Origin: a phage
Length of the DNA stretch: 64,000 nt
Reading direction: 5' to 3' (one strand)
Assembly (NCBI GenBank): GCA_032691205.1
Contig: GCA_032691205.1_4541.1
Under the pieces are notes generated by a model. It was given only the letters and a program-made list of their open reading frames with translations. It did no database searches and was not told the origin of the DNA. Each line of letters opens with the position of its first letter. The first letter of the stretch is position 1. Shown here in pieces: positions 11,872-63,252 of the stretch. The position numbers and the translations under genes were made by a program.

Positions 11872-12113
11872 TCCGCTATTAACGTCAAACCAAGTGCATC
11901 GTTAAAACGCTCAACATTTGAGTATAGGTATGGAGGGGTTATTTGCTCTAAAATTTGTGCTGCTTCCACTTGGTGCTCTATGTTTTGAGAAGTTCGGGCA
12001 TAAACTAAGACACCCATTTTATTCAAAATAAAAACAGAATCAGACCCATCCAGCTTATCAACGGCTGCATACATTTTAGTCATATCTTCTCCTGGATTAC
12101 CATTCAGCAACAA
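11865..12113 (-). CDS. hypothetical protein (82 aa)
   Basis: ORF track. Confidence 0.5.
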   Translation of the reverse strand: MLLNGNPGEDMTKMYAAVDKLDGSDSVFILNKMGVLVYARTSQNIEHQVEAAQILEQITPPYLYSNVERFNDALGLTLIAEW

Positions 12114-12312
12114 GACTAGGATTCATAGCAAAAGCTTTGAAATTTGTTATGTCATGACTAACATTAAAACTAACACCTTTTACTTTCTCTAGTATTTGAA
12201 CTTTTGTCTCTCCGTCCCACGGTAGGATGATAACACCATCTCCTGTGATCAACCACCAATGGTTCTCTCCATCTCGTGAATCTTTTGCTTTGTATAGAAA
12301 ATTGGAACTCAT
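12097..12312 (-). CDS. hypothetical protein (71 aa)
   Basis: ORF track; RBS GGAGGAAG. Confidence 0.5.
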   Translation of the reverse strand: MSSNFLYKAKDSRDGENHWWLITGDGVIILPWDGETKVQILEKVKGVSFNVSHDITNFKAFAMNPSLVAEW

Positions 12313-12349
12313 TCTTCCTCCTGTTCGGTATTATTCACCTGTGAGACAC

Positions 12350-12379
12350 AATGTAACACAAGCTTTGTGAGTTTGTCAA
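12350..12379 (-). promoter_or_regulatory. sigma70-like promoter (TTGACA N18 TACATT)
   Basis: Read on minus strand upstream of gene 12097-12312. Confidence 0.5.
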
Positions 12380-12513
12380 GGATCTAATTACATTCTACAG
12401 AAGAAGAGGGTTAATAACTATAGGAATAGTCTTACTATAGGTGCAATACTAGTTAAGACTTAGATTGATAGGTAAGACTTATCTTAAACAGATAATTGAT
12501 AGGTGAATCAGCA

Positions 12514-12571
12514 TTGACTTTTTCAAAAAAATATGGTACCCTAAACATATGTTTACGAGCGATAGCGAGTA
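12514..12571 (+). promoter_or_regulatory. conserved promoter-leader element, copy A
   Basis: TTGACT N17 (TG)TACCCT then 14 nt then GAGCGATAGCGAGTA; near-identical to copy at 48479. Confidence 0.45.
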
Positions 12572-12672
12572 GTAGATTTCTATATAATAATGTTTCATGT
12601 TACTCACGATAGTGAGGTATGAAACGTAAGTGAAGGTAGATAAACTATGATCATCTATCTACCATCTATTAA

Positions 12673-12882
12673 TCAGTATAGATCCAATGTTAGACTAACA
12701 GTTATCCAACAAACAATAACAGTCCATATAACAAGTAATGATCTACAAACTACATCCCATTCAAATACATTGTATGTTAACCATTCTCCCATCACAACAC
12801 AAGAACCTAACCAACATCCAACAATAACTATAATCCAATAAAAGAATCCTACAGTAGAGTATATAGCAAAAGCTTTTAACAT
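12673..12882 (-). CDS. small hydrophobic membrane protein (69 aa)
   Basis: ORF track; strong RBS GGAGGAAAG; hydrophobic translation. Confidence 0.5.
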   Translation of the reverse strand: MLKAFAIYSTVGFFYWIIVIVGCWLGSCVVMGEWLTYNVFEWDVVCRSLLVIWTVIVCWITVSLTLDLY

Positions 12883-26645: not shown

Positions 26646-26985
26646 GACAATCTCCTCTCATCGTTAGCCATCTTTCATGGCAATCATCAATCACCAACAT
26701 CATACGATCAATCTTAAGGAATTACAATCGAATTATCATAGGGGATTCCTATCAATTATCCCATATATACCGATTATTTTTGACACCCCCACTCTTGTAT
26801 AAAAAGTAACCCAAAATATCTACGGGGAGAGATTATTTCGACACACCCTGTTTCATGGCAATCATGGCAAGAATATCTAATAGAATCAATATGATATGGC
26901 AAAAATCATGGCGCATACGTAAGAAGTGCTTAACGCGAATTTTCGGGCCGTCAGGTCCACGCAGCGACAATTCCCAAATATCATG

Positions 26986-27008
26986 CGAATGAGAATAATT
27001 ATCATTCG
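26986..27008. promoter_or_regulatory. Fur-box-like palindrome (candidate operator)
   Basis: cgaatgagaataattatcattcg, near-palindromic. Confidence 0.3.
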
Positions 27009-27338
27009 TATTCAATGACTTATGCAAGGCTCATGCCAACATAGCGACAAGGTGGGCCACCTGATTATAAATCACACAAACACTTATTTATCAATGGCTT
27101 GGCAACTTCATCATATGACGGAACAATGTCAACTGATCCCGCTCATGACAAGCAGACTATTATTTATATGAGAATGATTATTATTTAAACGTTTATTAAC
27201 ATAAAAACTAAAATAAATCAAGATTATTCTGATTTTATTTACGTTTAAGAGAAGGTGCTCAACATATCGCGTAGCGATAGTATTCGCCCCCAAAATTATT
27301 GACTTTTATTCTATTATGTGCATAGTGTGCAATGTATC

Positions 27339-27357
27339 GGAATGATGATAATCATCC
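27339..27357. promoter_or_regulatory. Fur-box-like palindrome (candidate operator)
   Basis: ggaatgatgataatcatcc. Confidence 0.3.
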
Positions 27358-27400
27358 TCCCATTGCCCCCATAATTATTGCCATGCTAATTGTTTCCTTA

Positions 27401-27423
27401 CATAATCATTACAATGATTATTG
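27401..27423. promoter_or_regulatory. inverted repeat ATAATCATT/AATGATTAT
   Basis: cataatcattacaatgattattg. Confidence 0.3.
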
Positions 27424-27901
27424 TTATTGCGCTAATGTTATGATCTTGGTAATTACATATAATGCTAATAATAAGCCAGCGCAATAAGTGTAAGCGTCAT
27501 TACGCTTGCAATTATTGCAAGCTACGCAGTAACAAGAAATAACCGTCACCGATGGTTATGATTGTTGGGGTGTAGTTGGCTTATTATTAGCTCGCTATGT
27601 GTCCGGCATAGCGTGCTAATGATGACTCTGTGAATGATTCGTTTTGTAATGATTTCATTCAGGCACTATTTTGCTAATAGTTATTATTTTAATGGTTTCG
27701 TTTGTTATTGTTCGTTAGTTGGTTGTTTTGTCGTGTTATCGTTATCTTGCTTAGTATTCATCATGGTTCGATTGTTTGTCGTTATCAATCATCTTGCTAT
27801 TATTCCTTTGATTATGATTAGTTTGCTTATTGTTTTATGTTGTTTGTTGGTTAGTTGTTGCGAACTATTATCAACATTATAATTATGCGCTTATATTGCA
27901 T

Positions 27902-27937
27902 AGATAATCATGGGTAGATGATAATGGTTATCATTGC
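27902..27937. promoter_or_regulatory. tandem Fur-box-like sites
   Basis: agataatcatgggtagatgataatggttatcattgc. Confidence 0.3.
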
Positions 27938-28142
27938 ACTAGAAAGGAGGTAAAAGGGTGTTTTTGATGGTTTGTTGTTGGTTGTTGATCGATTTTAACC
28001 GCTCTAAATGGCTCTCTAACAGCCTGTAACCCTGGGAGGTATGGTTATTCGTTTGCTGGTTGATTAGCTCGATACCGCAATTTATTCAGTTTTGTTCTGT
28101 GTCGGTTTTCCATAGGCGGAATCTATCAACATTGTTCGGGGC

Positions 28143-28169
28143 AAAAAGAAAGGGCGCTCGGTGCGCCCC
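28143..28169 (-). terminator. rho-independent terminator (minus strand)
   Basis: gggcgctcggtgcgccc hairpin; U-rich tract on minus strand. Confidence 0.6.
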
Positions 28170-28184
28170 TTGTTTTGTTGTCGA

Positions 28185-28745: not shown

Positions 28746-29114
28746 TTACTTTGTGCGGTTGTGAACGTTATCGCGTTCAACCATCAGGGCAAGGCGGATC
28801 AGTTGATCAGTTGTATCGCGTAAATTGTCGGGCCATGTTTTACTGTTCCAGCTATCCAGGTTTGATTGTATATAGGTTTCAATGGCTTGATCCATACTAT
28901 CAAACAAGTTTTCCTCCAAGCTCTCGGCTGTTTCACACTGGAAAGCATTAGCGACACTGTTAATCAATAAGCAAGCCAGTAAATCAGCATTACGCCAATT
29001 TTTACGGATAGTTTCATCTGTCAGATAACAAACGAGATTAACCTTTGCGCCAGTGGTTGACGTTGCGATCACTTCTTGTGCTTTTTCAAGTGCTTTAATT
29101 GCTGATTTGCTCAT
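28746..29114 (-). CDS. hypothetical protein (122 aa)
   Basis: Track ORF trimmed to ATG 29114 (RBS AGAGGA) so that it begins downstream of the promoter cassette. Confidence 0.55.
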   Translation of the reverse strand: MSKSAIKALEKAQEVIATSTTGAKVNLVCYLTDETIRKNWRNADLLACLLINSVANAFQCETAESLEENLFDSMDQAIETYIQSNLDSWNSKTWPDNLRDTTDQLIRLALMVERDNVHNRTK

Positions 29115-29131
29115 TTTATTTTCCTCTTTGT

Positions 29132-29192
29132 GGGCTTGCTGTATTGCTCGCCCTACGTGATAAATAATAATGTAAGCGTGATCCGGTGTCAA
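29132..29192 (-). promoter_or_regulatory. PeSL-like cassette (degenerate hairpin + TTGACA promoter)
   Basis: -35 tgtcaa at 29187-29192 (plus-strand spelling); gccctacgtg box. Confidence 0.45.
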
Positions 29193-29321
29193 TAGGTAGG
29201 ATTGTAAAGATTTGATAGTTTATCTCTTTGATGTTTTGTTGTTTGATAGGTATTAGCTATCGATATATAGCGGGATCTTCCGGTGATTATCTTCCCCTGC
29301 TCCCAGGTGCCGCCCGTTCAA

Positions 29322-29355
29322 TAAGTATAACAAAAAACAGGACAAAAACAAGCCC
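29322..29355 (-). terminator. rho-independent terminator (minus strand)
   Basis: aacaggg...ccctgtt hairpin; T-rich after it on minus strand. Confidence 0.45.
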
Positions 29356-29367
29356 TGTTTATTTATC

Positions 29368-29502
29368 TTAAAACCAGGTGCCAACCGTTTCCAATAGGTC
29401 GCTGACTACTAGGACAACATTGATCAGCACATGTTCAACCATGAAGGGGATAAGCGCCAGCGTTGCTACTACGATCCCCATTGTGATGATTACCTTTCTC
29501 AT
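29368..29502 (-). CDS. small membrane peptide (44 aa), not in ORF track
   Basis: Own translation MRKVIITMGIVVATLALIPF...; ATGA overlap with upstream gene. Confidence 0.4.
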   Translation of the reverse strand: MRKVIITMGIVVATLALIPFMVEHVLINVVLVVSDLLETVGTWF

Positions 29503-29789
29503 TGTTGGCGGTTTACGTAAGCTTTACCGTTTACGGTCATCGGTATGGCCTCAAGGTCTGGATCTCCCTTAAGGTCGCGTGCAAGCTCACCGCAGCGGGT
29601 ACCCTCGAATCCGTAGTACTCTGTTGTGCCGTCCTGGAAAGTTTTAGCGGCAAGGCATAGGCGATAATTAACGCCGATCCGGTTTATTGCGTTGATATCG
29701 GTTAGCGCGATGGATTCTGGCAACTCATTAGCCAGTACAGGCGCGTTAATACCAACAACCAGGGCAACTACTGCGATCATCTTTTTCAT
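29499..29789 (-). CDS. small secreted protein with signal peptide (96 aa)
   Basis: N-terminus MKKMIAVVALVVGINAPVLA. Confidence 0.55.
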   Translation of the reverse strand: MKKMIAVVALVVGINAPVLANELPESIALTDINAINRIGVNYRLCLAAKTFQDGTTEYYGFEGTRCGELARDLKGDPDLEAIPMTVNGKAYVNRQQ

Positions 29790-29843
29790 GCGTCTATCCT
29801 CTTCCTATTGCGTTTAATGGGGTGTTACCGCCCCGCTTATGGT

Positions 29844-30080
29844 TTATTGATTGATGTTATGATGAAAGTTATTTTCTTCAATAGCTTTTAAAATAAAAGC
29901 CGTGATCGCTTTCGTGTCTACTTGTTCGAACGTATCAGAATAAGCCCAATAATAATCATCCCCTACTTTCGGCGGGTAAACCTGGACAAGGAGATCGCCA
30001 CCTGGTTGATCTATAAGCTCAACATGCAAGCCGGATGATTCAGCGGTTTTAACGGCGTTTAATACTGTTGCAATACTCAT
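29844..30080 (-). CDS. hypothetical protein (78 aa)
   Basis: ORF track; GC hairpin in 5' leader. Confidence 0.55.
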   Translation of the reverse strand: MSIATVLNAVKTAESSGLHVELIDQPGGDLLVQVYPPKVGDDYYWAYSDTFEQVDTKAITAFILKAIEENNFHHNINQ

Positions 30081-30124
30081 AATCTTTTCCTTTCTGATGT
30101 GGGGCGTTGCCGCCCCTTTGTTGA

Positions 30125-30424
30125 TTAGATCGCTGTTTCCAGTAGTTCGGCTAACGTCTTACCGCCTGATAGTTGGTCTAACGTTTGCTCTTCTGGCAAG
30201 AAATTAGCTGATATTAAACCAACTTGATTTCCTTTGTGCCAGTTAGCCTGGCGGATGATTCCATCCTTTAAAGATTTTACCGCCATTGTGCAACCGTCGC
30301 CAAATGATTCATTTTTATGGTCCATCACTTCATAAGCGCCCAGTTTGCTGCTGTTAGGCACCATTAACGCGAACACATCACCAACAACCAGTTTTTCTAC
30401 GGTAACAATAGCGATAGTTTCCAT
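30125..30424 (-). CDS. hypothetical protein (99 aa)
   Basis: ORF track; RBS GAGGAAAG. Confidence 0.55.
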   Translation of the reverse strand: METIAIVTVEKLVVGDVFALMVPNSSKLGAYEVMDHKNESFGDGCTMAVKSLKDGIIRQANWHKGNQVGLISANFLPEEQTLDQLSGGKTLAELLETAI

Positions 30425-30442
30425 TTTACTTTCCTCATTATC

Positions 30443-30498
30443 GGCGGCACCATTGCCGCCCTACGTGGTAAATATTAGCACACTGCCGATCTGTGTCA
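30443..30498 (-). promoter_or_regulatory. PeSL-like cassette: TTGACA N17 TAATAT promoter + stem-loop ggcggcaccattgccgcc
   Basis: Hairpin 30443-30460; -35 at 30493-30498. Confidence 0.6.
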
Positions 30499-30505
30499 AT
30501 ACTTT

Positions 30506-30892
30506 TTATTCAATATAAATCAAATTATCTTCACCAATGTAAGCCGACACGTTCGGCATAAACTTAGCTGCATTTGTTAGGCGGTTGGCTGTGTTAGTGG
30601 TGTATATTTCAGGGCGATCCCAAAAGCCTACGCCGTGACTGTTACGGGTAAAATGTAAATCATTCCCGATCTGGTTGGCTGTTGCGCCGTCGCTCATTGC
30701 CTCAGAGATAGCGGCAAGATTAGCATTAATAAAGGCTGTTACATCCTGGGCGATCCGTTCGTCCGCGCTAGGAGAAAAATCATAATCAGTCATGTCATCT
30801 ATAAAATTACCTTCATGATCCCTTGCGGATTCAGCAAAAATAAAGGCTTCTTTATAACCGTTGATGATTTCAATAATGATTTCTGTTTTCAT
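30506..30892 (-). CDS. hypothetical protein (128 aa)
   Basis: ORF track. Confidence 0.6.
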   Translation of the reverse strand: MKTEIIIEIINGYKEAFIFAESARDHEGNFIDDMTDYDFSPSADERIAQDVTAFINANLAAISEAMSDGATANQIGNDLHFTRNSHGVGFWDRPEIYTTNTANRLTNAAKFMPNVSAYIGEDNLIYIE

Positions 30893-31104
30893 GCTGTACG
30901 CTCGACAATAATAATAGTTTGCGGGATCTCATTTTCTACTACTAACAAGGCTTTTTTCTGCGTAATAGATATTTTAACACGTTGTAACGTGGCGGTAAAG
31001 TCTTTCATCTCATTATGCGCGGATTTAGTGCAATGCCAGATCTCAGGCTTACCTATTTGCAAGCCGCGTAAAAATTCTGTTTTACCTGTCTTATTCGTGA
31101 TCAT
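30889..31104 (-). CDS. hypothetical protein (71 aa)
   Basis: Track ORF (TTG start) trimmed to ATG 31104 after AAGGTG. Confidence 0.5.
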   Translation of the reverse strand: MITNKTGKTEFLRGLQIGKPEIWHCTKSAHNEMKDFTATLQRVKISITQKKALLVVENEIPQTIIIVERTA

Positions 31105-31114
31105 TTGATTCACC

Positions 31115-31219
31115 TTAACCAATACCGTGGGAAGATAGGATCATATTAGCCATAGTTGCAACCAATCCAACCGATAACGCCAGGCCAACTATTACAACCG
31201 TGAAAATTTTCTCTAACAT
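31115..31219 (-). CDS. small hydrophobic peptide (34 aa), not in ORF track
   Basis: Own translation MLEKIFTVVIVGLALSVGLVATMANMILSSHGIG. Confidence 0.35.
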   Translation of the reverse strand: MLEKIFTVVIVGLALSVGLVATMANMILSSHGIG

Positions 31220-31237
31220 GATTCTACCCTCATTAAT

Positions 31238-31299
31238 GGGCGTTGCCTTATTGCCCCGCCCTACGAAATACATTCTATCAGATAACAAATTATCGTCAA
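31238..31299 (-). promoter_or_regulatory. PeSL-like cassette (variant hairpin gggcgttgcc..gccccgccc)
   Basis: -35 cgtcaa at 31294-31299. Confidence 0.5.
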
Positions 31300-31442
31300 G
31301 ATTTATTTTTTACTTCCCAAACGGAAAATTCGCTGCCTGTTGGGATCATCTTTTTAATCTTGTTTGCTGCCGCTACCAGGTCAACGGCTTGCACTGTAAT
31401 AATATAACCAATTGTCGAGGCTGTTGCGTTGAAAGTTTTCAT
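31296..31442 (-). CDS. small protein (48 aa), not in ORF track
   Basis: Own translation MKTFNATASTIGYIITVQAVDL...; stop lies within the downstream -35. Confidence 0.4.
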   Translation of the reverse strand: MKTFNATASTIGYIITVQAVDLVAAANKIKKMIPTGSEFSVWEVKNKS

Positions 31443-31486
31443 TATATTATCCTTTAATACAGGCGGGATTAATCCCGCCTTATTAA

Positions 31487-31657
31487 TTACTCTTCATCGT
31501 CGCCGTTATAGTATTCAATGCCGTTTTCATCGGTTACAGTGATGTTAACGCCACCGATAGCAACACGATCACGGGCAAACGTCATAGCTTCATTTAAATC
31601 TTCAGACCAAAAAATATTGTGACCTTTGCGCGATACATAAAACATAGTCGGGATCAT
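31487..31657 (-). CDS. hypothetical protein (56 aa)
   Basis: Track ORF trimmed to ATG 31657 because the cassette hairpin lies inside the track ORF. Confidence 0.45.
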   Translation of the reverse strand: MIPTMFYVSRKGHNIFWSEDLNEAMTFARDRVAIGGVNITVTDENGIEYYNGDDEE

Positions 31658-31680
31658 GATTTGTTTCTCTTCTGTTGTGA

Positions 31681-31741
31681 GCGGTGGACCATTCCGCCGC
31701 CCTATGTGGTAAACTTTACTACGTTGTTTGCGTGCTGTCAA
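31681..31741 (-). promoter_or_regulatory. PeSL-like cassette (hairpin gcggtggaccattccgccgc)
   Basis: -35 tgtcaa at 31736-31741. Confidence 0.55.
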
Positions 31742-31742
31742 A

Positions 31743-32078
31743 TTATTTTTTAATGTTTTGCCCTACAAAATTAATCATTTCCTTAAGCTGTCTCTCTGTC
31801 ATGATCGTACCTGGTAACTCTTCTTTAATTTCTTCCGGTAAATAAATATTACCGCGCCAGGTTAACAAACAACCGTTTTGATCTTCGCAGATAGAATAGG
31901 AAAACATCCACTCGCAATCATTTTCAAGCTCCCAAAAACACAAAAAGTCTTCTTTCCCTAAGTTTTCAACGGTTAAACATAATCCGCGACGTGCTGCATA
32001 ATTAGTTAGGCTTTTTGTGATTTTCATGATTTTTCTCTCTTCTTGTGAGCGGCACCATTGCCGCCCTACAAGATACAT
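31743..32078 (-). CDS. hypothetical protein (111 aa)
   Basis: ORF track. Confidence 0.55.
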   Translation of the reverse strand: MYLVGRQWCRSQEERKIMKITKSLTNYAARRGLCLTVENLGKEDFLCFWELENDCEWMFSYSICEDQNGCLLTWRGNIYLPEEIKEELPGTIMTERQLKEMINFVGQNIKK

Positions 32079-32104
32079 ATTACCAGACTAAGCCGACTTG
32101 TCAA
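32049..32104 (-). promoter_or_regulatory. PeSL-like cassette (hairpin gcggcaccattgccgcc)
   Basis: -35 tgtcaa at 32099-32104. Confidence 0.55.
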
Positions 32105-32105
32105 A

Positions 32106-32216
32106 CTATTTTTTCTTTTTCTTTGCTTCCAACCGTCTAAGGTTACGGCTTGACTTATTGCGCAAGGCGCTTAGATCGTCGTACCCTTTCCATGCTTGCA
32201 TATCTTTCGGATTCAT
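32106..32216 (-). CDS. small basic protein (36 aa), not in ORF track
   Basis: Own translation MNPKDMQAWKGYDDLSALRNKSSRNLRRLEAKKKKK; RBS AAGGGG. Confidence 0.35.
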   Translation of the reverse strand: MNPKDMQAWKGYDDLSALRNKSSRNLRRLEAKKKKK

Positions 32217-32225
32217 GTTATCCCC

Positions 32226-32387
32226 TTACTTGTTAGCCGGATTATATGCCAGGACCGCGCCGCTTGCTTTCACGCTTTCCGCTTCATAGTTGCGCAGATC
32301 GTTTTCTGTAAGGTTGAGCGCGATCACTTCCTCGATCTCAACGTCAGCGGCAAGGGCGATCTCTTTGATAATGTCTGTTGTTTTCAT
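32226..32387 (-). CDS. small protein (53 aa), not in ORF track
   Basis: Own translation MKTTDIIKEIALAADVEIEEVIALNL... Confidence 0.4.
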   Translation of the reverse strand: MKTTDIIKEIALAADVEIEEVIALNLTENDLRNYEAESVKASGAVLAYNPANK

Positions 32388-32397
32388 AGTACGCACC

Positions 32398-32517
32398 TTA
32401 TAAGATGATTGATAAGATAGTGATAACGAAAGCGATTATACTGATGGCAAATGTCATCTTTTTACCTTCGGATACTGCCGGATTCTCTACCGTGTATTCT
32501 ACTGTGTACTTGCTCAT
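32398..32517 (-). CDS. small membrane peptide (39 aa), not in ORF track
   Basis: Own translation MSKYTVEYTVENPAVSEGKKMTFAISIIAFVITILSIIL. Confidence 0.4.
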   Translation of the reverse strand: MSKYTVEYTVENPAVSEGKKMTFAISIIAFVITILSIIL

Positions 32518-32537
32518 CGTGTAATCCTCTCGTTTGC

Positions 32538-32597
32538 TTTGGGAACTATTCCCGCCGCCCTATGAATTAAATATACACTATCTCAAAATGATTGCAA
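32538..32597 (-). promoter_or_regulatory. PeSL-like cassette (hairpin gggaactattccc; -35 TTGCAA)
   Basis: -35 at 32592-32597. Confidence 0.5.
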
Positions 32598-32613
32598 GCC
32601 TTTTTCTAAATTT

Positions 32614-32928
32614 TTATGCAGTAAACAAACCATCATTTACAACGGCGGCGATGATCTCCCGCGCCATTGATTCAGGGAAAGGGGCGCTATAGTCCTGGCT
32701 TGTCTCATCGGTATCAGTGATCCAATGATAAGCTAACGAGTAAAAGCCTTTACTAACTGTTTTCAGTGAGATGACGATCACTCGGTCAAGCTTATTGGTG
32801 AATGTTGCCGTTAATGTGTTACCCTCCTGCGTCATGTTGGACAAGTAAGCGGGATCATTAATCAGGGAAAACATTAGCACGGTGTTAGCTTTACTCATGA
32901 TTGCATCCTCAAAGGGGCGCGGCACCAT
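32614..32928 (-). CDS. hypothetical protein (104 aa)
   Basis: ORF track. Confidence 0.55.
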   Translation of the reverse strand: MVPRPFEDAIMSKANTVLMFSLINDPAYLSNMTQEGNTLTATFTNKLDRVIVISLKTVSKGFYSLAYHWITDTDETSQDYSAPFPESMAREIIAAVVNDGLFTA

Positions 32929-32974
32929 TGCCGCCCTACACGATAACTATAACACAATGTAAAACAGGATCAAC
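32917..32974 (-). promoter_or_regulatory. PeSL-like cassette (hairpin gcggcaccattgccgcc; -35 TTGATC)
   Basis: Hairpin about 32919-32935. Confidence 0.45.
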
Positions 32975-33176
32975 CTTTATTTTTCCACGGTGTCAGCTTG
33001 TTAATCATTGGTGATAAATAGCGTTTACCAACGTAAAACAGCACGCCAACTGATGCAACGGCGGCGATCTCATGCATAGCCGACGGGAAACGGGTATCAT
33101 AATAAGATCCAATAATAGCAATAGCGGCAACGGCTGCAACGTCGATAATGATTTTTTCTTGTTTTGCGGTGATCAT
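32970..33176 (-). CDS. small membrane protein (68 aa)
   Basis: Track ORF trimmed to ATG 33176; two hydrophobic segments. Confidence 0.45.
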   Translation of the reverse strand: MITAKQEKIIIDVAAVAAIAIIGSYYDTRFPSAMHEIAAVASVGVLFYVGKRYLSPMINKLTPWKNKG

Positions 33177-33196
33177 AATATTTACCTTTTTGTATG

Positions 33197-33256
33197 GTGG
33201 GGGAACTATTCCCCGCCTGATGTAATACAGTTTAACAGGTCCGGTTATGGTGTCAA
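33197..33256 (-). promoter_or_regulatory. PeSL-like cassette (hairpin gggggaactattcccc)
   Basis: -35 tgtcaa at 33251-33256. Confidence 0.55.
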
Positions 33257-33262
33257 CCACTT

Positions 33263-33448
33263 TTAAAGATATTTTATACTGATAACGTTTTCCGGTTTAA
33301 CCTTGTTGTGATGTGCATCAACATAGATCAAACCATCGTCAGAAAAGCCCAGGATCACGCCCTGCGCAATAAAACCGTATTCGTCACGGTAACGCACGGC
33401 TATTTTTAACGTTGCGTTGTAGGCTGTTTTAAGCTCGCTTAAAGTCAT
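33263..33448 (-). CDS. hypothetical protein (61 aa)
   Basis: ORF track. Confidence 0.5.
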   Translation of the reverse strand: MTLSELKTAYNATLKIAVRYRDEYGFIAQGVILGFSDDGLIYVDAHHNKVKPENVISIKYL

Positions 33449-33465
33449 CTTTGTTTATCCTCTAC

Positions 33466-33496
33466 ATGTAAAAAGAAAGGGCGCTTGGTGCGCCCC
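33466..33496 (-). terminator. rho-independent terminator (minus strand)
   Basis: gggcgcttggtgcgccc hairpin; U tract on minus strand. Confidence 0.6.
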
Positions 33497-33504
33497 TTAT
33501 TATG

Positions 33505-33651
33505 TTAATCCTCTAAATCCATCCAATTATATTTGTCACTCTTCCCGCGCTTTGTTTTATTGCGCTTGTCGCCTTTGCGGATCACTTCCTCGTTCCAGGC
33601 CTTGCGGATCTTGGAAGATTGAATTTTTTCTGCGCGATTAGATGTATTCAT
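33505..33651 (-). CDS. small basic protein (48 aa), not in ORF track
   Basis: Own translation MNTSNRAEKIQSSKIRKAWNEEVIRKGDKRNKTKRGK... Confidence 0.4.
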   Translation of the reverse strand: MNTSNRAEKIQSSKIRKAWNEEVIRKGDKRNKTKRGKSDKYNWMDLED

Positions 33652-33671
33652 TTTGTTTCCTCTTCATATGA

Positions 33672-33724
33672 GCGGCACCATTGCCGCTATATTGTTAATT
33701 TAAGCTGTTTTGTAAAATTGTCAA
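33672..33724 (-). promoter_or_regulatory. PeSL-like cassette (hairpin gcggcaccattgccgc)
   Basis: -35 tgtcaa at 33719-33724. Confidence 0.55.
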
Positions 33725-33730
33725 GGTTTA

Positions 33731-34084
33731 TCATTCATAAGAGCAAGCAAGGATCACGCCTGCAATATAAAGCCAATAATTTTCCCTTTCTCGTTGGATT
33801 TTATCATCGCTGCTATTCTCTTTAATGTATCCCCAGGATGTTAACAAGCGATCAATTTCCCAATATTCGAAAGCGATATTGATATCTGATGGCAAACCTT
33901 GTAACCATGATGCAAGTGCTTTAACAATACTATAATTAAAACGTGATTGGTTATCAGGGTACCAGTACTCGGAATTAAAACGGCGCATCAATTCCGCGAT
34001 CTTCTCTTTTTCGGTTGTAATACCGTAATCATTAAAATCGATAGCGGCAAGTATGTACTCTTTAATTGCATTTTGTGCTTTCAT
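33731..34084 (-). CDS. hypothetical protein (117 aa)
   Basis: ORF track. Confidence 0.55.
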   Translation of the reverse strand: MKAQNAIKEYILAAIDFNDYGITTEKEKIAELMRRFNSEYWYPDNQSRFNYSIVKALASWLQGLPSDINIAFEYWEIDRLLTSWGYIKENSSDDKIQRERENYWLYIAGVILACSYE

Positions 34085-34103
34085 GGTCTTTCTCTCTTTT
34101 TGA

Positions 34104-34160
34104 GCGGGAACTATTCCCGCCCTACGTGTAACAGTTTACTAAAAATTAAATCGGTGTCAA
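34104..34160 (-). promoter_or_regulatory. PeSL-like cassette (hairpin gcgggaactattcccgc)
   Basis: -35 tgtcaa at 34155-34160. Confidence 0.6.
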
Positions 34161-34163
34161 GCT

Positions 34164-34385
34164 TTATTTTGTTACTACCATTTGGTACCCTGTTTCAATG
34201 TTAGTAAATACTGTTATTCCGTCCTGGCGTTCACTCATTAGCATACAAGGCGCTAACATCCTTTCTACTGCCTTGCACTCATTGTAAACGGCGGTTATGT
34301 CTCCTGCGGCCTTGTCTTCTGTGGTGAATGTATCGTTTACGTAAACCTGACCAGCGACAACGGCGACAATAGCGAAAGTGATCAT
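34164..34385 (-). CDS. hypothetical protein (73 aa)
   Basis: ORF track; begins ATGATCACTTT like the next ORF. Confidence 0.5.
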   Translation of the reverse strand: MITFAIVAVVAGQVYVNDTFTTEDKAAGDITAVYNECKAVERMLAPCMLMSERQDGITVFTNIETGYQMVVTK

Positions 34386-34459
34386 GATGTTTCCTTGTTA
34401 GTAGTGGTTTCTCTTCTCTATAGCGCCCATTATAAGGCGCTATAACGAAAAGTCAACGA

Positions 34460-34627
34460 TTATTTTTTAAGGCTTAAAGTACCTAACTTGTCAGCATGAC
34501 GCAGACCAGGGAAGATCCATTTTCCTGATTCATCTTTTACAGGGGCTTTAAGCGTAGCGCCCAGGTTGGCGGCGTTAACTTTACGGGCAACGTTGCGAGC
34601 GGCTTCACGGGTAGTAAAAGTGATCAT
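34460..34627 (-). CDS. small protein (55 aa), not in ORF track
   Basis: Own translation MITFTTREAARNVARKVNAANLGATLKAPVK... Confidence 0.4.
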   Translation of the reverse strand: MITFTTREAARNVARKVNAANLGATLKAPVKDESGKWIFPGLRHADKLGTLSLKK

Positions 34628-34651
34628 GATGTTTTCCTCTTCTCTTTGTTA

Positions 34652-34713
34652 GGCGGTGGACCATTCCGCCGCCTTGATGTAATACAGTTTACTTTATTTT
34701 TGCAGTATTGCAA
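34652..34713 (-). promoter_or_regulatory. PeSL-like cassette (hairpin ggcggtggaccattccgccgcc; -35 TTGCAA)
   Basis: -35 at 34708-34713. Confidence 0.55.
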
Positions 34714-34718
34714 GCGTT

Positions 34719-34931
34719 TTATGAAATAATCGTCAAAGTAAAATTGTAATCACCTGATTGGTACAATACTTTATCACCGAACGTTCCAACACGTTTAACA
34801 TTGCAATATATACCCATAACACTTTTTACATCTTTGATATTCTTCACGCCTGTAATATCTTTATTAAAATGATCGTGATCAGAAAATAAAACTTGACTTG
34901 CATTTTTTAACAGTGTGCGGATATTAGCCAT
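34719..34931 (-). CDS. hypothetical protein (70 aa)
   Basis: ORF track. Confidence 0.5.
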   Translation of the reverse strand: MANIRTLLKNASQVLFSDHDHFNKDITGVKNIKDVKSVMGIYCNVKRVGTFGDKVLYQSGDYNFTLTIIS

Positions 34932-34956
34932 CGTGATAATCTCTCTTCTGTTGTGA

Positions 34957-35012
34957 GCGGCACTATTGCCGCCCTACGTAATACAGTTTACTCTTTTTCT
35001 TTCCCGTGTCAA
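34957..35012 (-). promoter_or_regulatory. PeSL-like cassette (hairpin gcggcactattgccgcc)
   Basis: -35 tgtcaa at 35007-35012. Confidence 0.6.
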
Positions 35013-35021
35013 CAATCTTTT

Positions 35022-35249
35022 TCAGATTAATTCATCCAGGCATAACAGGCGATCAACGTTGAGATCGGTCAGGCTGATGGTTGGCACCTGGTAGGATTCG
35101 ATGTACTCGACGCTTGCATATTCCCCAAAATTAGCAATAGCCCACTTATTCAAGATCTCACATACATCATTAATCTTTTTGTTTGTTACAACTGCAATAA
35201 CCTGGGAAGTGCCAACGGTGCCGGATACGCGAACAATATTGATAGCCAT
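35022..35249 (-). CDS. hypothetical protein (75 aa)
   Basis: ORF track. Confidence 0.5.
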   Translation of the reverse strand: MAINIVRVSGTVGTSQVIAVVTNKKINDVCEILNKWAIANFGEYASVEYIESYQVPTISLTDLNVDRLLCLDELI

Positions 35250-35270
35250 AATCTTTAATCTCTCTGTTGT

Positions 35271-35330
35271 TGGCGGGAAACCACTTCCCGCCCTATGTGA
35301 TACATCTTACACTAATTTTAAACGTTGTCA
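35271..35330 (-). promoter_or_regulatory. PeSL-like cassette (hairpin ggcgggaaaccacttcccgcc)
   Basis: -35 tgtcaa at 35325-35330. Confidence 0.6.
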
Positions 35331-35340
35331 ACTGTTTTTA

Positions 35341-35580
35341 TTACATTCCAACCATCGCGGCGCGGATCGCAGTTTTACTATACTTAAAGCCGTCTGGCGT
35401 TGTAGTGATTCCATCCTGTTTCAAACGGTAGCACATTAAATCAGCCGCCTGATCTTTATTACCGCACTCATTGATCAATCCCAATGCAAACCGATACAAT
35501 CCCTCATCGTTATTAATCCACAGGCTTACATTCCAATGAGTTTTGTTTTTGTGACCGTTGTACATTTTAGATTTAGCCAT
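35341..35580 (-). CDS. hypothetical protein (79 aa)
   Basis: ORF track. Confidence 0.5.
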   Translation of the reverse strand: MAKSKMYNGHKNKTHWNVSLWINNDEGLYRFALGLINECGNKDQAADLMCYRLKQDGITTTPDGFKYSKTAIRAAMVGM

Positions 35581-35604
35581 GATTTTTCTCTCTTTTTCAG
35601 TGAG

Positions 35605-35663
35605 GCGGGAAGTGTTCCCGCTCTCTATGTAATACAGTTTACTCTTTTTATTCGTGCTGTCAA
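35605..35663 (-). promoter_or_regulatory. PeSL-like cassette (hairpin gcgggaagtgttcccgc)
   Basis: -35 tgtcaa at 35658-35663. Confidence 0.6.
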
Positions 35664-35669
35664 TGCTTT

Positions 35670-36023
35670 TTATAAATCTTTTTTACGTTTTACATCGCTT
35701 GCATGACTGTATACAGCGATCCCATTATCACGACAAAAACGGGTAAGGTATGATCCGCGTGAAAACTCTTTCCCTTCCAGGTCAACAACCTTGCTAAATT
35801 CTTCCAGGGCAACGGTATCAAAATGATCACCATAACCATATTGAAACGGCACGTTAACAACTTCAATCAATTTACCGCCGATCTCAACGTCCACGCTTAA
35901 AGAAAAATATGTGTTACCGTAGGACTGTTGAAACCAGCGACGGGCGCTAATGTGAACGGCTTCAATCTCACCAATTTTAAATTGAGTGTTACCCAGGATC
36001 GCAACGTTGATATTTTTAGCCAT
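35670..36023 (-). CDS. hypothetical protein (117 aa)
   Basis: ORF track. Confidence 0.55.
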   Translation of the reverse strand: MAKNINVAILGNTQFKIGEIEAVHISARRWFQQSYGNTYFSLSVDVEIGGKLIEVVNVPFQYGYGDHFDTVALEEFSKVVDLEGKEFSRGSYLTRFCRDNGIAVYSHASDVKRKKDL

Positions 36024-36048
36024 GATTTTTTCTCTCTTTTTGGTTAGT

Positions 36049-36100
36049 GGGAAGTGTTCCCGATAAAAGTTATTATGCTTATACTATCGTTTTTTGTCAA
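36049..36100 (-). promoter_or_regulatory. PeSL-like cassette (short hairpin gggaagtgttccc)
   Basis: -35 tgtcaa at 36095-36100. Confidence 0.5.
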
Positions 36101-36119
36101 TAGTATAAGACTAAAACTT

Positions 36120-36299
36120 TTAACGATAATCGTCGTAGGCTTTATTAACCTGGCGAATATAACATTCGAAAGCGAGATCAATAGAATCATATTCCCGCAC
36201 ATAATCCCCGTAAGAAACTACATACACACCTTTTTGATCCTCAAACGTCATGATGATAGAATCCAGGCCGATGATTTCAGTTTTAGCGATGATAGTCAT
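36120..36299 (-). CDS. small protein (59 aa), not in ORF track
   Basis: Own translation MTIIAKTEIIGLDSIIMTFEDQKGVYVVSYG... Confidence 0.45.
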   Translation of the reverse strand: MTIIAKTEIIGLDSIIMTFEDQKGVYVVSYGDYVREYDSIDLAFECYIRQVNKAYDDYR

Positions 36300-36320
36300 A
36301 ATAATAACCTTTTTATTGTT

Positions 36321-36377
36321 GGCGGCACCATTGCCGCCCTACGTGATAAACTATACCAGAATTTTAAACAGTGTCAA
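36321..36377 (-). promoter_or_regulatory. PeSL-like cassette (hairpin ggcggcaccattgccgcc)
   Basis: -35 tgtcaa at 36372-36377; -10 TATAGT. Confidence 0.6.
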
Positions 36378-36387
36378 ACGTTTTTTC

Positions 36388-36633
36388 TTAGTTTGCGAAA
36401 TATGGCGCGGCGGCTGATGCCGTTAATCTCCAAGTGATTTGGCTATCGATCAAGTATTCTTCATTCTTGATCCGCACGGTATCAATCGAGAAGTTACTGA
36501 AAGGCTTGCTCTTGATTTTACGAACAACCGTTACACGACGGTTATTTTTCATCTCTTTTAACTGAATCCAGGCGTAACCTTTTTCATTGACAAATATTTC
36601 ATTGTGATTGGTGATAGATGATAAGTGTTTCAT
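36388..36633 (-). CDS. hypothetical protein (81 aa)
   Basis: ORF track. Confidence 0.5.
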   Translation of the reverse strand: MKHLSSITNHNEIFVNEKGYAWIQLKEMKNNRRVTVVRKIKSKPFSNFSIDTVRIKNEEYLIDSQITWRLTASAAAPYFAN

Positions 36634-36654
36634 GATTTGTTTCTCTTCTGTTTT

Positions 36655-36714
36655 GAGCGGTGGACCATTCCGCCGCCCTATGTGTTACATCTTACTACTT
36701 TTTTAAACATTGTC
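36655..36714 (-). promoter_or_regulatory. PeSL-like cassette (hairpin gcggtggaccattccgccgc)
   Basis: -35 tgtcaa at 36709-36714. Confidence 0.6.
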
Positions 36715-36724
36715 AAGGATATTT

Positions 36725-37006
36725 TTAACTATATGATCCACATCGTTCGCAGTAGTGATCATCGTCGTCATCTGCTACCTGGCTGATAAAATGATCTACC
36801 TTTGCTTTCAAATTATTATAATTGCTTTCTACTTCCTGTAGTCGTCGTTGGTAGTATTCCAGGGCTTGCACATAGGCCATTTGTTCGGTTTTAGCTTGCA
36901 CAGCTAAATTCATGCCGCGCGTTTCATCGTATAACCAATAACCATCATTACATTCACTAATAGATAGTGTAGGGCTTAGTTTTTCGTGACGGATAACCTT
37001 GCTCAT
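36725..37006 (-). CDS. hypothetical protein (93 aa)
   Basis: ORF track; C-terminal CERCGS. Confidence 0.55.
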   Translation of the reverse strand: MSKVIRHEKLSPTLSISECNDGYWLYDETRGMNLAVQAKTEQMAYVQALEYYQRRLQEVESNYNNLKAKVDHFISQVADDDDDHYCERCGSYS

Positions 37007-37016
37007 GGTGTGCCCC

Positions 37017-37124
37017 TTACTTCAAAATGATTGTTGTGATAACTGCTACGGTGATCCAAAATGGAACGGCTAGAATGATAGCGTTAATCGTTCCAACCGT
37101 CAAACTATTTCCTTTATTAATCAT
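37017..37124 (-). CDS. small membrane peptide (35 aa), not in ORF track
   Basis: Own translation MINKGNSLTVGTINAIILAVPFWITVAVITTIILK; RBS AAGAGG. Confidence 0.4.
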   Translation of the reverse strand: MINKGNSLTVGTINAIILAVPFWITVAVITTIILK

Positions 37125-37153
37125 TGTAAGCCTCTTGCATAATTTCACTATGA

Positions 37154-37210
37154 GCGGCACCATTGCCGCCCTACGTGGTAAATATTATGCCAGTGGCGGC
37201 GATATGTCAA
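37154..37210 (-). promoter_or_regulatory. PeSL-like cassette (hairpin gcggcaccattgccgcc)
   Basis: -35 tgtcaa at 37205-37210 overlaps stop of upstream gene. Confidence 0.6.
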
Positions 37211-37773
37211 AGACTATTTTCAAAGTTTTCTAGTGCGATCCTTTTTTCTTCCTCTGTCGGCTGATAATCAGGAAAAGCATCAACACACAACAACGGCGGG
37301 ATCTCTTCGTACTCTTCCTCTTCCGTTGTCTCCTCGTCTTCCTCCTGGGCTATGGCTGCAATTTTGGCTAATTTTCTTTCAGCTTGAATCAATTTACCAT
37401 CAAGTACGTTTTTTGCCATGTTGTAAGCGGTCCAGGTGATGCGCTTACTTTCCAGGGCCTGATCGAGCGCCGCTATCTTGCTGGGGTATTCATCCAGGAC
37501 ACGAAAAGCCGGATCAACTTTGTACAAAGGATTATCTTTCGCGCCGTCGCTCGCATCTTCCGCACTGGATAAATCAGCGTTACCATTTGCCAGCCAGCCA
37601 GGGCGCACATAACGCGCTTTTACGTTGCCGTTACTACGTGCTAATCTGTTACCTATTTGCTCACCGCTATATCCCGTGGATTCATCGATAAGATGATCGG
37701 GAATGATGCGCGGATCATCTGCTTCATGTTTTACCCAAGACTGGATCACATATTCGCGGCCCATATTAACCAC
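37207..37773 (-). CDS. hypothetical protein (188 aa), acidic C-terminus
   Basis: ORF track. Confidence 0.6.
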   Translation of the reverse strand: MVNMGREYVIQSWVKHEADDPRIIPDHLIDESTGYSGEQIGNRLARSNGNVKARYVRPGWLANGNADLSSAEDASDGAKDNPLYKVDPAFRVLDEYPSKIAALDQALESKRITWTAYNMAKNVLDGKLIQAERKLAKIAAIAQEEDEETTEEEEYEEIPPLLCVDAFPDYQPTEEEKRIALENFENSL

Positions 37774-38023
37774 CTTTTTTCAACAATTGGCATACTTTAA
37801 AAAGACTTGCTGAATCCTTGCAAGGGTAGAAAGATGTACGATAATCACGTACGCCAACCTTGCGGATCTCGATGTTCTCGCATGTTGTTTGATCAAAGAT
37901 ATTTATTTCATCACGCCCCCTTATATAAACATAGTGGGGATGTATTAACGCATATTTTGCTAATCTGTAAAAAGCGTTATCTTTGAACGCGATCACGTGA
38001 CCTTTTAATTTGATGTAAAACAT
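37766..38023 (-). CDS. hypothetical protein (85 aa)
   Basis: ORF track. Confidence 0.5.
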   Translation of the reverse strand: MFYIKLKGHVIAFKDNAFYRLAKYALIHPHYVYIRGRDEINIFDQTTCENIEIRKVGVRDYRTSFYPCKDSASLFKVCQLLKKGG

Positions 38024-38041
38024 TCTACCACCTTACAAATA

Positions 38042-38096
38042 GCGGGAACTATTCCCGCTTTATGTAACATATTAACAAATTATTCGTTAATGTCAA
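38042..38096 (-). promoter_or_regulatory. PeSL-like cassette (hairpin gcgggaactattcccgc)
   Basis: -35 tgtcaa at 38091-38096. Confidence 0.6.
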
Positions 38097-38099
38097 GCC

Positions 38100-38372
38100 T
38101 TAAAGCAAAAACGCTACATCTTGCGCTTTTAGTGTAGTATCAACCATTTTCGGGCTTTTATAATCAACAAAGCGCGCGGTTTTTTCAATAGCGAAACCGA
38201 GATAATCTTGCTTGTTGAAATTACATTCTTTCTTAAATGTTTCCCGTGCAATGGCAATCGCTGCGTCCAGGGATAAACGCCCGTCAATATTGATATTAGC
38301 GAAAGATCCGCCACCGCTCATAGGTTTACCAGTTGTGCCAGCTACGATCATTGTTGCGCTATATGATGCCAT
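38100..38372 (-). CDS. hypothetical protein (90 aa)
   Basis: ORF track. Confidence 0.5.
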   Translation of the reverse strand: MASYSATMIVAGTTGKPMSGGGSFANINIDGRLSLDAAIAIARETFKKECNFNKQDYLGFAIEKTARFVDYKSPKMVDTTLKAQDVAFLL

Positions 38373-38407
38373 GATGATAATCTCTCTTCTGTTACGAGCG
38401 GGAAACC

Positions 38408-38466
38408 ACTTCCCGCCCTATGTGATACATCTTATCAGGTTGTTGTTTGTTGTCAATACTTTTTAT
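38408..38466 (-). promoter_or_regulatory. PeSL-like cassette (hairpin gcgggaaaccacttcccgc)
   Basis: -35 tgtcaa at 38461-38466 overlaps stop of upstream gene. Confidence 0.6.
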
Positions 38467-38660
38467 TCTATCCCTGCAATTTGATTAACGCGCTTGCATT
38501 TTGTAGCGTGCTGGTCTTCTGTAATGACTCCCATTTCTAACAGGGAATCAATGAAAGATAAAACCGTTTCATGATCATCCTGGGGATGACTGAACTCAGT
38601 AAAACCGTTTACTATTACGTTGATTTGTCCAGCTTTCGCCACAATGTGCAATGTTGCCAT
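38463..38660 (-). CDS. hypothetical protein (65 aa)
   Basis: Track ORF trimmed to ATG 38660 (RBS GGAG) because the cassette hairpin lies inside the track ORF. Confidence 0.45.
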   Translation of the reverse strand: MATLHIVAKAGQINVIVNGFTEFSHPQDDHETVLSFIDSLLEMGVITEDQHATKCKRVNQIAGIE

Positions 38661-38681
38661 GATCTTAACTCCAAATAGTGA

Positions 38682-38738
38682 GCGGCACCATTGCCGCGCT
38701 ACGTGGTAAATATTATGCCGCCACCTGGCGAACGTCAA
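38682..38738 (-). promoter_or_regulatory. PeSL-like cassette (hairpin gcggcaccattgccgc; TTGACG N17 TAATAT)
   Basis: -35 at 38733-38738. Confidence 0.6.
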
Positions 38739-48478: not shown

Positions 48479-48536
48479 TTGACTTTTTTCAAAAAATATG
48501 CTACCCTAACCCCGAAGGGTCGAGCGATAGCGAGTA
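48479..48536 (+). promoter_or_regulatory. conserved promoter-leader element, copy B
   Basis: TTGACT N17 (TG)TACCCT then 14 nt then GAGCGATAGCGAGTA; same spacing as copy A. Confidence 0.5.
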
Positions 48537-48651
48537 TAGATTATGTAATAGATTAATCTCTATCGTTAGATGTTCGAAGAACAGAGATTTAAGTACTTGT
48601 TCTTATCGGTAGATGATCGTAAGATCAAGAACAATAATAGGAGAGTGTGTT

Positions 48652-63236: not shown

Positions 63237-63252
63237 AAAGAGAGGAGAAAAG

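Follow-up and report, generated by a model that had tools for sequence, protein, structure and literature searches.

A putative promoter-hairpin cassette conserved at two sites of a phAPEC8-like phage genome

The stretch of DNA analysed here (the window; 64,000 nucleotides of contig GCA_032691205.1_4541.1, NCBI GenBank assembly GCA_032691205.1) carries two similar elements on its plus strand, at 12514-12571 (site A) and 48479-48536 (site B), and sequence comparison makes paralogous copies of one conserved cassette the best explanation of them. With moderate confidence, we read this cassette as a sigma-70 promoter of the extended -10 type combined, at a fixed distance, with a strand-specific RNA hairpin that would be recognised by a factor. 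About 70 phage records match a 1.5-kb stretch around site A with 95-99.9% identity, and nearly all of them come from Escherichia phages that belong to Phapecoctavirus, a phAPEC8-like genus of the subfamily Stephanstirmvirinae with ~150-kb genomes; by these matches, the window is that of a phAPEC8-like E. coli myophage.

Two copies of the cassette and their conservation

A preliminary description, made from the letters of the window and its open reading frames (ORFs), had given for both sites TTGACT and TACCCT separated by 17 bp, a TG just upstream of the latter, and, after a further 14 nt, a shared sequence in identical spacing, and all of this is borne out on the plus strand at the same coordinates (Table 1). 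The elements were also called near-identical, which holds for two blocks, namely the promoter block (26 of 29 nt identical, the spacer ending in TGG at site A and TGC at site B) and the CGAGCGATAGCGAGTA block (16 of 16 nt), and is overstated for the elements as wholes, since 45 of the 58 positions agree overall and merely three of the 13 that link the blocks. The 15-mer GAGCGATAGCGAGTA, at 12557-12571 and 48522-48536 and each time 14 nt past TACCCT, has exactly these two occurrences in the window, as does TTGACT-N17-TACCCT; shuffled sequences average 0.68 matches to the 15-mer with up to three mismatches permitted. On these counts, chance cannot explain the resemblance of the sites. The 15-mer had been regarded as a leader, and the shared sequence is real, but instead of a linear leader sequence it makes up a hairpin (see below). 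Beyond the 16-nt hairpin block, the predicted transcripts of the two sites have nothing in common.

Further copies, for which a search had been proposed, were sought by BLAST with 71 nt around either site as the query. Exactly two places per genome were found in the ~70 Phapecoctavirus records, and two or three places per genome, at ~82% identity, in the sister genus Justusliebigvirus (phi92-like), although the surrounding intergenic DNA cannot be aligned between the two genera. These exact copy numbers, together with 82% cross-genus identity amid unalignable DNA, argue that the element is real and under selection, and as judged by these comparisons the cassette is conserved across the Stephanstirmvirinae. 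Three copies exist in the whole genome of Justusliebigvirus alia: one, like site B, is co-oriented with genes and followed by a ~100-nt leader and an ORF; another, like site A, is antisense to the minus-strand early block, in one of its gaps; and the third, which has a counterpart upstream of a baseplate wedge gene in Klebsiella phage KP2025, lies in a divergent intergenic region and is followed by a very A+T-rich repeat tract. The left-hand neighbours of site A and of the antisense copy of alia are homologous genes (35% identity, E = 3e-9), and these two copies are therefore orthologous.

As had been described, site A lies on the plus strand within a 360-bp gap (12313-12672) of a minus-strand gene block, between the minus-strand ORFs 12097-12312 and 12673-12882, both of which are annotated as genes in relatives, and site B precedes plus-strand genes, here a nucleotide-metabolism and replication block. 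The antisense, ORF-free arrangement was recognised in four lineages, including phiWec190 and Klebsiella phage phi1_175008, and since this synteny is conserved, an antisense and non-coding reading of site A, suggested earlier as an antisense or small RNA, is supported at the level of sequence.

About a dozen distinct copies are available in all (IMG/VR scan plus fetched records), the distant relatives compared being four IMG/VR loci (L067, L068, L071 and L072), two Klebsiella phages (L075 and L076) and phiWec190 (L077). Kept across the distant copies are TTGACT, 17 bp, TG, TACCCT, AA, a variable 12-16 nt and CGAGCG-N(1-2)-AGCGAG. As the IMG/VR scan required TACCCTAA, the constancy of the -10 hexamer in the IMG/VR loci is uninformative; a lineage retrieved by the 15-mer alone has TAAGCT in place of TACCCT. 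Both sites show the sigma-70 extended -10 features (TTGACT, 5 of 6 consensus positions; 17 bp; TGn; TACCCT with T1, A2 and T6), and those fixed in divergent relatives (TTGACT, the 17-bp spacing, TG at -15/-14, and A-11 and T-7 of the -10 hexamer) are the positions read by sigma-70, while the spacer sequence drifts. The promoter reading of the preliminary description thus gains from the comparison, and we infer that both sites are promoters of the extended -10 type for the sigma-70 RNA polymerase of the host.

Two side observations concern site A. A 495-nt contig (L106) of the Lysobacteraceae bacterium JHOS43 is near-identical to the site A region, and is most likely a phage contamination of that assembly. 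In L075 (661-780) and in several GenBank records that match site A, a short hypothetical protein is annotated over the promoter and hairpin, and is probably spurious.

A conserved hairpin on the promoter strand

The core of the hairpin block has the order C, GA, GC, loop, GC, GA, G, for which we propose a C-G pair, tandem G.A pairs of the sheared type, a G-C and a C-G pair, and a GNA or GNNA loop. The loops across the copies are GATA, GAA, GCA and GGGA; three distinct ones occur within one genome, where loop length shifts by 1 nt, and the flanks, which also vary, usually contribute one to four extra pairs. The G.A pairs are possible on the plus strand alone, the complement having pyrimidine mismatches, and all copies are on the strand of the promoter. 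In an alignment of 22 hairpins, 84% of the cells pair (28-44% with slid partners), seven of the eight pairs show changes on both sides, the flanks contain G-U pairs, and the covariation score was matched by none of 500 shuffles; hairpins of other phages have A-U in place of the inner G-C pair and U-A in place of the closing C-G pair, which keeps the pairing. For most copies the proposed hairpin is the minimum-free-energy (MFE) structure of the RNA, with predicted energies of -5 to -8 kcal/mol, and together with the G-U pairs in the flanks this fits a role as RNA. Since the sequence is invariant and the predicted stability low, sequence-specific recognition seems most likely. A loose GATTnT follows 3-5 nt past the hairpin across the copies. 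The imperfect hairpins described further downstream of both sites are likewise predicted here, although their single-sequence energies are only modestly below those of shuffles (z = -2.3 and -1.5). A minus-strand terminator was considered for the same DNA and rejected: a scan flags site B, but none of the minus-strand genes has its end at that place, and the equivalent pairing is missing at site A.

In the mechanism that we propose, host polymerase would start ~7 nt past TACCCT, and the first ~30 nt of RNA would fold into the conserved hairpin (at about +6 to +22, 12-16 nt past the -10 hexamer), which would be the recognition site, on nascent or 5'-proximal RNA, of a putative factor. This factor would decide what becomes of transcripts with a long untranslated part at their beginning, guarding them against 5'-end-dependent decay and/or premature termination. 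Site B would start the structured leader, ~140 nt long, of the nucleotide-metabolism and replication block; site A, diverging from an early-operon promoter, would yield a structured, ORF-free RNA of ~110-130 nt, and its transcript, if prolonged, would enter the 3' end of the upstream early operon in antisense.

Several points weigh against this mechanism. TACCCT agrees with the -10 consensus at three positions only and is omitted by a consensus scan, and a search of the literature gave no transcriptome, 5'-end or expression data for Phapecoctavirus or Justusliebigvirus. At site B the flanks fail to lengthen the stem and the MFE fold consists of two apical pairs only, and three single hairpins of the 22-hairpin alignment were picked because they were visibly paired. 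No candidate protein binding the hairpin was identified. The small palindromes that straddle the predicted start at both sites (Table 1; most other copies have a different one between the -10 hexamer and the hairpin, often of the C-GAA-G type) would be incomplete in an RNA starting there, and therefore suggest either a feature at the DNA level or another start. Finally, the core obeys the GCGNAGC/GCGNNAGC rule of DNA mini-hairpins, and may thus act as single-stranded DNA.

A more far-reaching idea, which we regard as unlikely on present grounds, is that the invariant hairpin (UAC-GA-GC-GNNA-GC-GA-GUA) is a dedicated recognition module that defines a very small regulon in the Stephanstirmvirinae, made up of two or three "master" promoters. 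If this were true, the module would be a candidate for an anti-Rho/antitermination device or for a replication-priming device; one master promoter would drive a protected antisense RNA into the early block and shut it off, while the others would switch on DNA-metabolism genes and, in Justusliebigvirus, baseplate genes. The apical hairpin recurs in 5' leaders of unrelated uncultured phages and in bacterial arrays resembling Gut-1 (see below), and on this view it would represent a nucleic-acid module that is widespread and has not been described. Transcriptional timing is essentially unmapped in phAPEC8-, phi92- and rV5-like phages, although they are common in therapy cocktails, and a rare promoter class with a conserved transcript tag, one copy being antisense to early genes, would offer a testable handle on the switching of their programme. 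A specific partner of the hairpin, if there is one, would give a function to the motif in other phages and in bacterial arrays; without a partner, the sites would simply add two to the many promoter cassettes of this genome.

Known systems and rival explanations

The rival explanations are taken here in falling order of probability. In the first, rather unlikely, the hairpin is a loading site for processive antitermination in the manner of lambda nut, HK022 put or ops/RfaH, by which the untranslated leaders and the antisense transcript of site A would be extended; it is a specific sub-case of our own reading. Every copy stands at the head of a long untranslated stretch, a prime target of Rho, and the copies resemble nutL/nutR and putL/putR in their small number (two per genome), in their fixed place just past promoters and in their small hairpins with G...A-closed loops. 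The nut and put elements act in cis on the transcribing polymerase and head long transcription units, whereas one of the two copies here is aimed antisense into an operon rather than heading it. There is no boxA-like sequence (CGCTCTTA-like) beside the hairpin or within 120 nt downstream of either site, the loops have 3-4 nt and not 5, no sequence similarity to boxB exists, and the hairpin is much nearer the start site than in nut; to our knowledge, there is no N-like protein in this phage group. HK022 put, which consists of two specific stem-loops (~70 nt) and acts on polymerase without protein factors, is comparable by its general layout only (two copies, promoter-proximal hairpins).

The ops element offers more detail. 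At 9 of 12 positions, the core AGCGATAGCGAG agrees with the ops consensus GGCGGTAGCGTG; it contains a C-G/G.A mini-hairpin of the GCGNNAGC type with T in the loop, as is formed by ops itself (Zuber et al. 2018, PMC5995543), and it stands in the leader of a long operon. However, ops needs G5, T6, G8 and T11; in vitro, recruitment is lost altogether with G5A, and in vivo, T11G ranks with the most severe defects (PMC5995543). The core differs at two of these positions whose substitution cripples RfaH action (G5 to A and T11 to A), and membership in the ops/RfaH system was rejected, although a mechanism of this general kind may apply. Loop length and loop bases, which RfaH reads, vary among the copies even in one genome, some loops being of 3 nt without T6, and the stem with its extra G.A pairs and flanks is larger than the non-template strand exposed in the transcription bubble of the elongation complex. 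RfaH exists in the host; in phages of the subfamily, no RfaH/NusG homologue was found by tblastn (with E. coli RfaH as the query, none of the Stephanstirmvirinae records was hit at E values of up to 0.01, a search that could miss remote homologues). No target for read-through is evident close to site B, since the first strong intrinsic terminator past it lies at a distance of 8.5 kb.

The second explanation arises from the other promoters of the window. A strong-promoter scan found ~20 further cassettes, near-identical to one another, on the minus strand at 29.1-38.7 kb (window 29100-38800), and one on the plus strand at 63178-63240. In this class (class I), an A-tract, TTGACA, 16-17 bp, TAAnnT, GTAtCAC and (A/G)TAGGGCGG, which opens a G+C-rich hairpin, are followed by a ribosome-binding site rich in purines and then by a small ORF that begins with ATG, and with ~20 such cassettes in one genome, a promoter with a 5' hairpin is a normal design of early genes in this phage. 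The class of sites A and B differs from class I in its extended -10 promoter with a poor hexamer, in its invariant weak hairpin with non-Watson-Crick pairs, where class-I stems are G+C-rich and covary freely, in its leaders (at least 90 nt free of start codons after every copy, against 30-40 nt in class I), and in having two or three copies only, one of them without a gene. By these features, sites A and B are a second, rare class of promoter-hairpin cassette, which belongs conceptually with the known promoter/stem-loop cassettes of phages.

Promoter-early stem-loop cassettes (PeSLs) of T4-type phages are repeated modules that recombine (Arbiol et al. 2010, PMC2839356), and their stem-loop, rich in G/C tracts, usually lies between the -35 and -10 hexamers or over the latter and is a terminator for upstream transcription (PMC2839356). 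Sites A and B share with them the conserved intergenic module of a sigma-70-type promoter and an adjacent stem-loop in a large lytic coliphage. They differ in that the hairpin would be transcribed, lies 12-16 nt past the -10 hexamer, is invariant and weak, and has no U tract, and in that the two copies are 36 kb apart, one without an ORF, whereas class I does have the copy number and small ORFs of PeSLs. The class-I array, which was also found in Justusliebigvirus, looks like a hyperplastic region of the PeSL type. It is nevertheless quite unlikely that sites A and B are plain cassettes of this kind, with a generic 5' hairpin and a mutual likeness due to duplication or recombination instead of selection on sequence. 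The abundance of class-I cassettes in both genera and the recombination of T4-type PeSLs would favour this explanation, but the core does not change between genera or in distant relatives, unlike the flanks, spacer and loop, which drift, its predicted stability is far below what a generic protective hairpin needs, and one copy precedes no gene. Moreover, the copies have the same orientation and are separated by 36 kb, so that the early region would be lost if they recombined with each other.

A third explanation, distinctly unlikely, is an origin or priming site of replication of the T4 oriF/oriG kind, in which the transcript would remain as a persistent RNA-DNA hybrid and the displaced plus strand would form DNA mini-hairpins (C-GAA-G and GCGNNAGC types) that hold the loop open or mark a site for loading primase or helicase. 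According to the mini-hairpin rule (GCGNAGC/GCGNNAGC), a G-C and a C-G pair closing a G-N(1-2)-A loop are unusually stable in DNA, and natural examples are the priming sites of phage G4 and RSF1010 and the early promoters of N4, which are those of its virion polymerase (PMC13037366). Every copy of the core obeys this rule (GCGATAGC, GCGAAGC, GCGCAGC and GCGGGAGC), as do many of the small palindromes, which straddle the start site and make more sense in DNA, and the copies lie at a transcription start region of a phage. The known mini-hairpins are read as single-stranded DNA by phage RNA polymerases or primases, whereas the hairpin of sites A and B stands behind a promoter of the host type; we know of no enzyme in this phage group that reads such mini-hairpins. 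With standard parameters, which do not cover the special stability of the motif, the DNA hairpin has negligible energies of -1 to -3.7 kcal/mol, and the G-T pairs that the flanks would then contain are poorly tolerated in DNA. Similar hairpins of another phage lineage lie directly on ribosome-binding sites, which argues for a role as RNA.

Some features of the location of the copies would favour an origin. Site A has no ORF, short direct repeats upstream and A+T-rich DNA downstream, site B is 1.2 kb from the point at which gene orientation and GC skew switch, and the region of the third copy in Justusliebigvirus is divergent, with a repeat tract of very high A+T content after it. Of the features of T4-type R-loop origins, a promoter is present and the 30 nt downstream have a high A+T content, as does, however, the genome at large (62% A+T). 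GC skew in the window merely follows gene orientation, as was noted for phage rV5 too (PMC3606486), and is thus uninformative on origins.

Least of all, and very improbably, the cassette might be an operator in double-stranded DNA, at which a repressor on the AGCGA-N-AGCGA direct repeat past the start would block two or three promoters: the tandem AGCGA repeat does keep a constant place with respect to the promoter, but its spacing varies by 1 bp within one genome (AGCGATAGCGA and AGCGAAGCGA), one copy reads AGCGC, and the flanks covary as pairs, which a protein binding the duplex would not need.

Outside this subfamily, the exact 18-mer TACGAGCGATAGCGAGTA was found in 38 bacterial genome contigs, in many of them within arrays of hairpins with a repeated linker, and the hairpin is thus not peculiar to this phage family. 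The identical 18-mer is one unit in bacterial small-hairpin arrays that resemble Gut-1 (RF01706), whereas at each phage site one hairpin stands alone behind a promoter and there is no array with linkers; we know of no function for Gut-1 itself. The window as a whole has no match in Rfam at gathering thresholds, Gut-1 included, and around site A, at E up to 10, the best matches (E ~10) were to unrelated snoRNA models. A literature search with sequence strings gave a single irrelevant hit. The bacterial arrays (L079, L083-L085, L087, L092, L095, L107, L108, L113 and L115) belong to Ruminococcus, Eubacteriales, Akkermansia and Clostridia and have linkers of 7-9 nt, those in one half of an array being complementary to those in the other half; in Akkermansia, two inverted arrays surround a small ORF. 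One array reaches the Rfam threshold for Gut-1 (50.6 bits).

Three to four copies of the hairpin per locus also occur in unrelated uncultured phages of IMG/VR (L016, at 1700-2800, L005, L021, L031, L047 and L054; contigs of 135-163 kb, ~30% G+C). Each is followed by a sister hairpin of the same design, the 3' arm of which enters the ribosome-binding site, and downstream are mini-ORFs, 7-10 codons long, and the gene of a GIY-YIG endonuclease. BLAST against known phages gave no close relatives of these phages, and a multi-copy hairpin locus of another phage had no match in Rfam.

Surroundings of the two sites

The coordinates of all features at the two sites are collected in Table 1. The gap of site A also contains a good predicted minus-strand promoter, and site A is thus one arm of a pair of divergent promoters. 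Of its two downstream hairpins, the first has two pairs kept through compensatory (two-sided) changes between the window and phiWec190; the second lies just beyond the stop codon of the minus-strand ORF 12673-12882, and may therefore serve either strand. No terminator with a T-run follows site A on the plus strand. The plus-strand ORF 12647-12841 was rejected as a gene, being antisense to a plausible small membrane protein gene that is annotated in relatives and having no counterpart in the Justusliebigvirus or Klebsiella-phage copies. Complementary targets of the site A RNA or the site B leader within the window did not go beyond 12-13-mers at chance level. Upstream of site A, ATTGATAGG repeats are also present in phiWec190 and, inverted, in Justusliebigvirus alia, and may be a binding site of a regulator. 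The two copies of ACTATAGG were considered as T7-like promoters and rejected, the three copies in the window being the chance level.

Table 1. Positions of predicted and directly read features at sites A and B
Feature	Position	Strand	Sequence or structure	Basis
Divergent promoter for ORF 12097-12312 (putative)	12350..12379	-	TTGACA-N18-TACATT with TG	consensus scan, 10/12
Three short direct-repeat pairs	12417..12504	+	ACTATAGG x2, TAGKTAAGACTTA x2, ATTGATAGGT x2 (31 bp apart)	
Promoter, site A (putative)	12514..12542	+	TTGACT 12514-12519, 17-bp spacer, TG 12534-12535, TACCCT 12537-12542	direct reading
Small palindrome, site A	12543..12554	+	AAACATATGTTT, over predicted start (expected ~12549-12551)	direct reading
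Conserved hairpin, site A	12553..12572	+	core CGAGCGATAGCGAG 12556-12569, GATA loop, flanking TAC/GTA pairs	RNA MFE fold
First downstream hairpin, site A	12592..12625	+	GTTTCAT...ATGAAAC around CTCAC-GATA-GTGAG	predicted
Second downstream hairpin, site A	12635..12663	+	GGTAGATA...TATCTACC (inverted repeat I1)	predicted
Promoter, site B (putative)	48479..48507	+	TTGACT 48479-48484, 17-bp spacer, TG 48499-48500, TACCCT 48502-48507	direct reading
Small palindrome, site B	48509..48520	+	ACCCCGAAGGGT, over predicted start of site B	direct reading and folding
Conserved hairpin, site B	48521..48536	+	core CGAGCGATAGCGAG plus TA; flanks add no stem pairs	
Leader hairpin 1, site B	48555..48589	+	outer stem AATCTCT/AGAGATT, 5' bulge ATCGTTAGAT, apical GTTC-GAA-GAAC	direct reading
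Leader hairpin 2, site B	48597..48634	+	outer stem TTGTTCTT/AAGAACAA, 5' bulge ATCGGTAGAT, apical GATC-GTAA-GATC	predicted
Ribosome-binding site, site B	48640-48643	+	GGAG; ATG at 48652	

The leader of site B contains two hairpins of similar build, each with a 10-nt 5' bulge, AUCG(U/G)UAGAU, and a small apical hairpin. Compared by eye, two outer-stem pairs of the first are changed on both sides in phiWec190 (AGTTTCT/AGAAACT), and a similar bulged hairpin exists in the leader of Justusliebigvirus; an automatic alignment of B-type leaders did not recover the stem of this hairpin, and automatic consensus folding across genera was unsuccessful because of insertions and deletions. The outer stem of the second (UGUUC/GAACA) is kept in all four aligned sequences. 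TAGAT occurs four times in 117 nt of the leader, where 0.16 occurrences are expected (a post hoc test), and the pair of UAGAU-bulged hairpins (48555-48634) is possibly a leader element that binds a protein.

Genes in the window are oriented on the plus strand to ~9.2 kb, on the minus strand from 9.2 to 47.2 kb, in a long run of small ORFs, and on the plus strand again from 47.4 kb. No tRNA or tmRNA was found by a scan of the window. At 26650-28180, a region of ~1.5 kb contains short ORFs only (<85 aa) in a genome that is otherwise densely packed, and a "non-coding" region was likewise reported for phage rV5 (PMC3606486). The plus-strand block from 47.4 kb includes a UvrD-like helicase ORF (52181-54811) with an intein, as suggested by Intein_splicing and Hint matches, and an anaerobic ribonucleotide reductase gene (57099-59682) that is split between two ORFs, which are separated by a third one of 169 aa (58079-58588).

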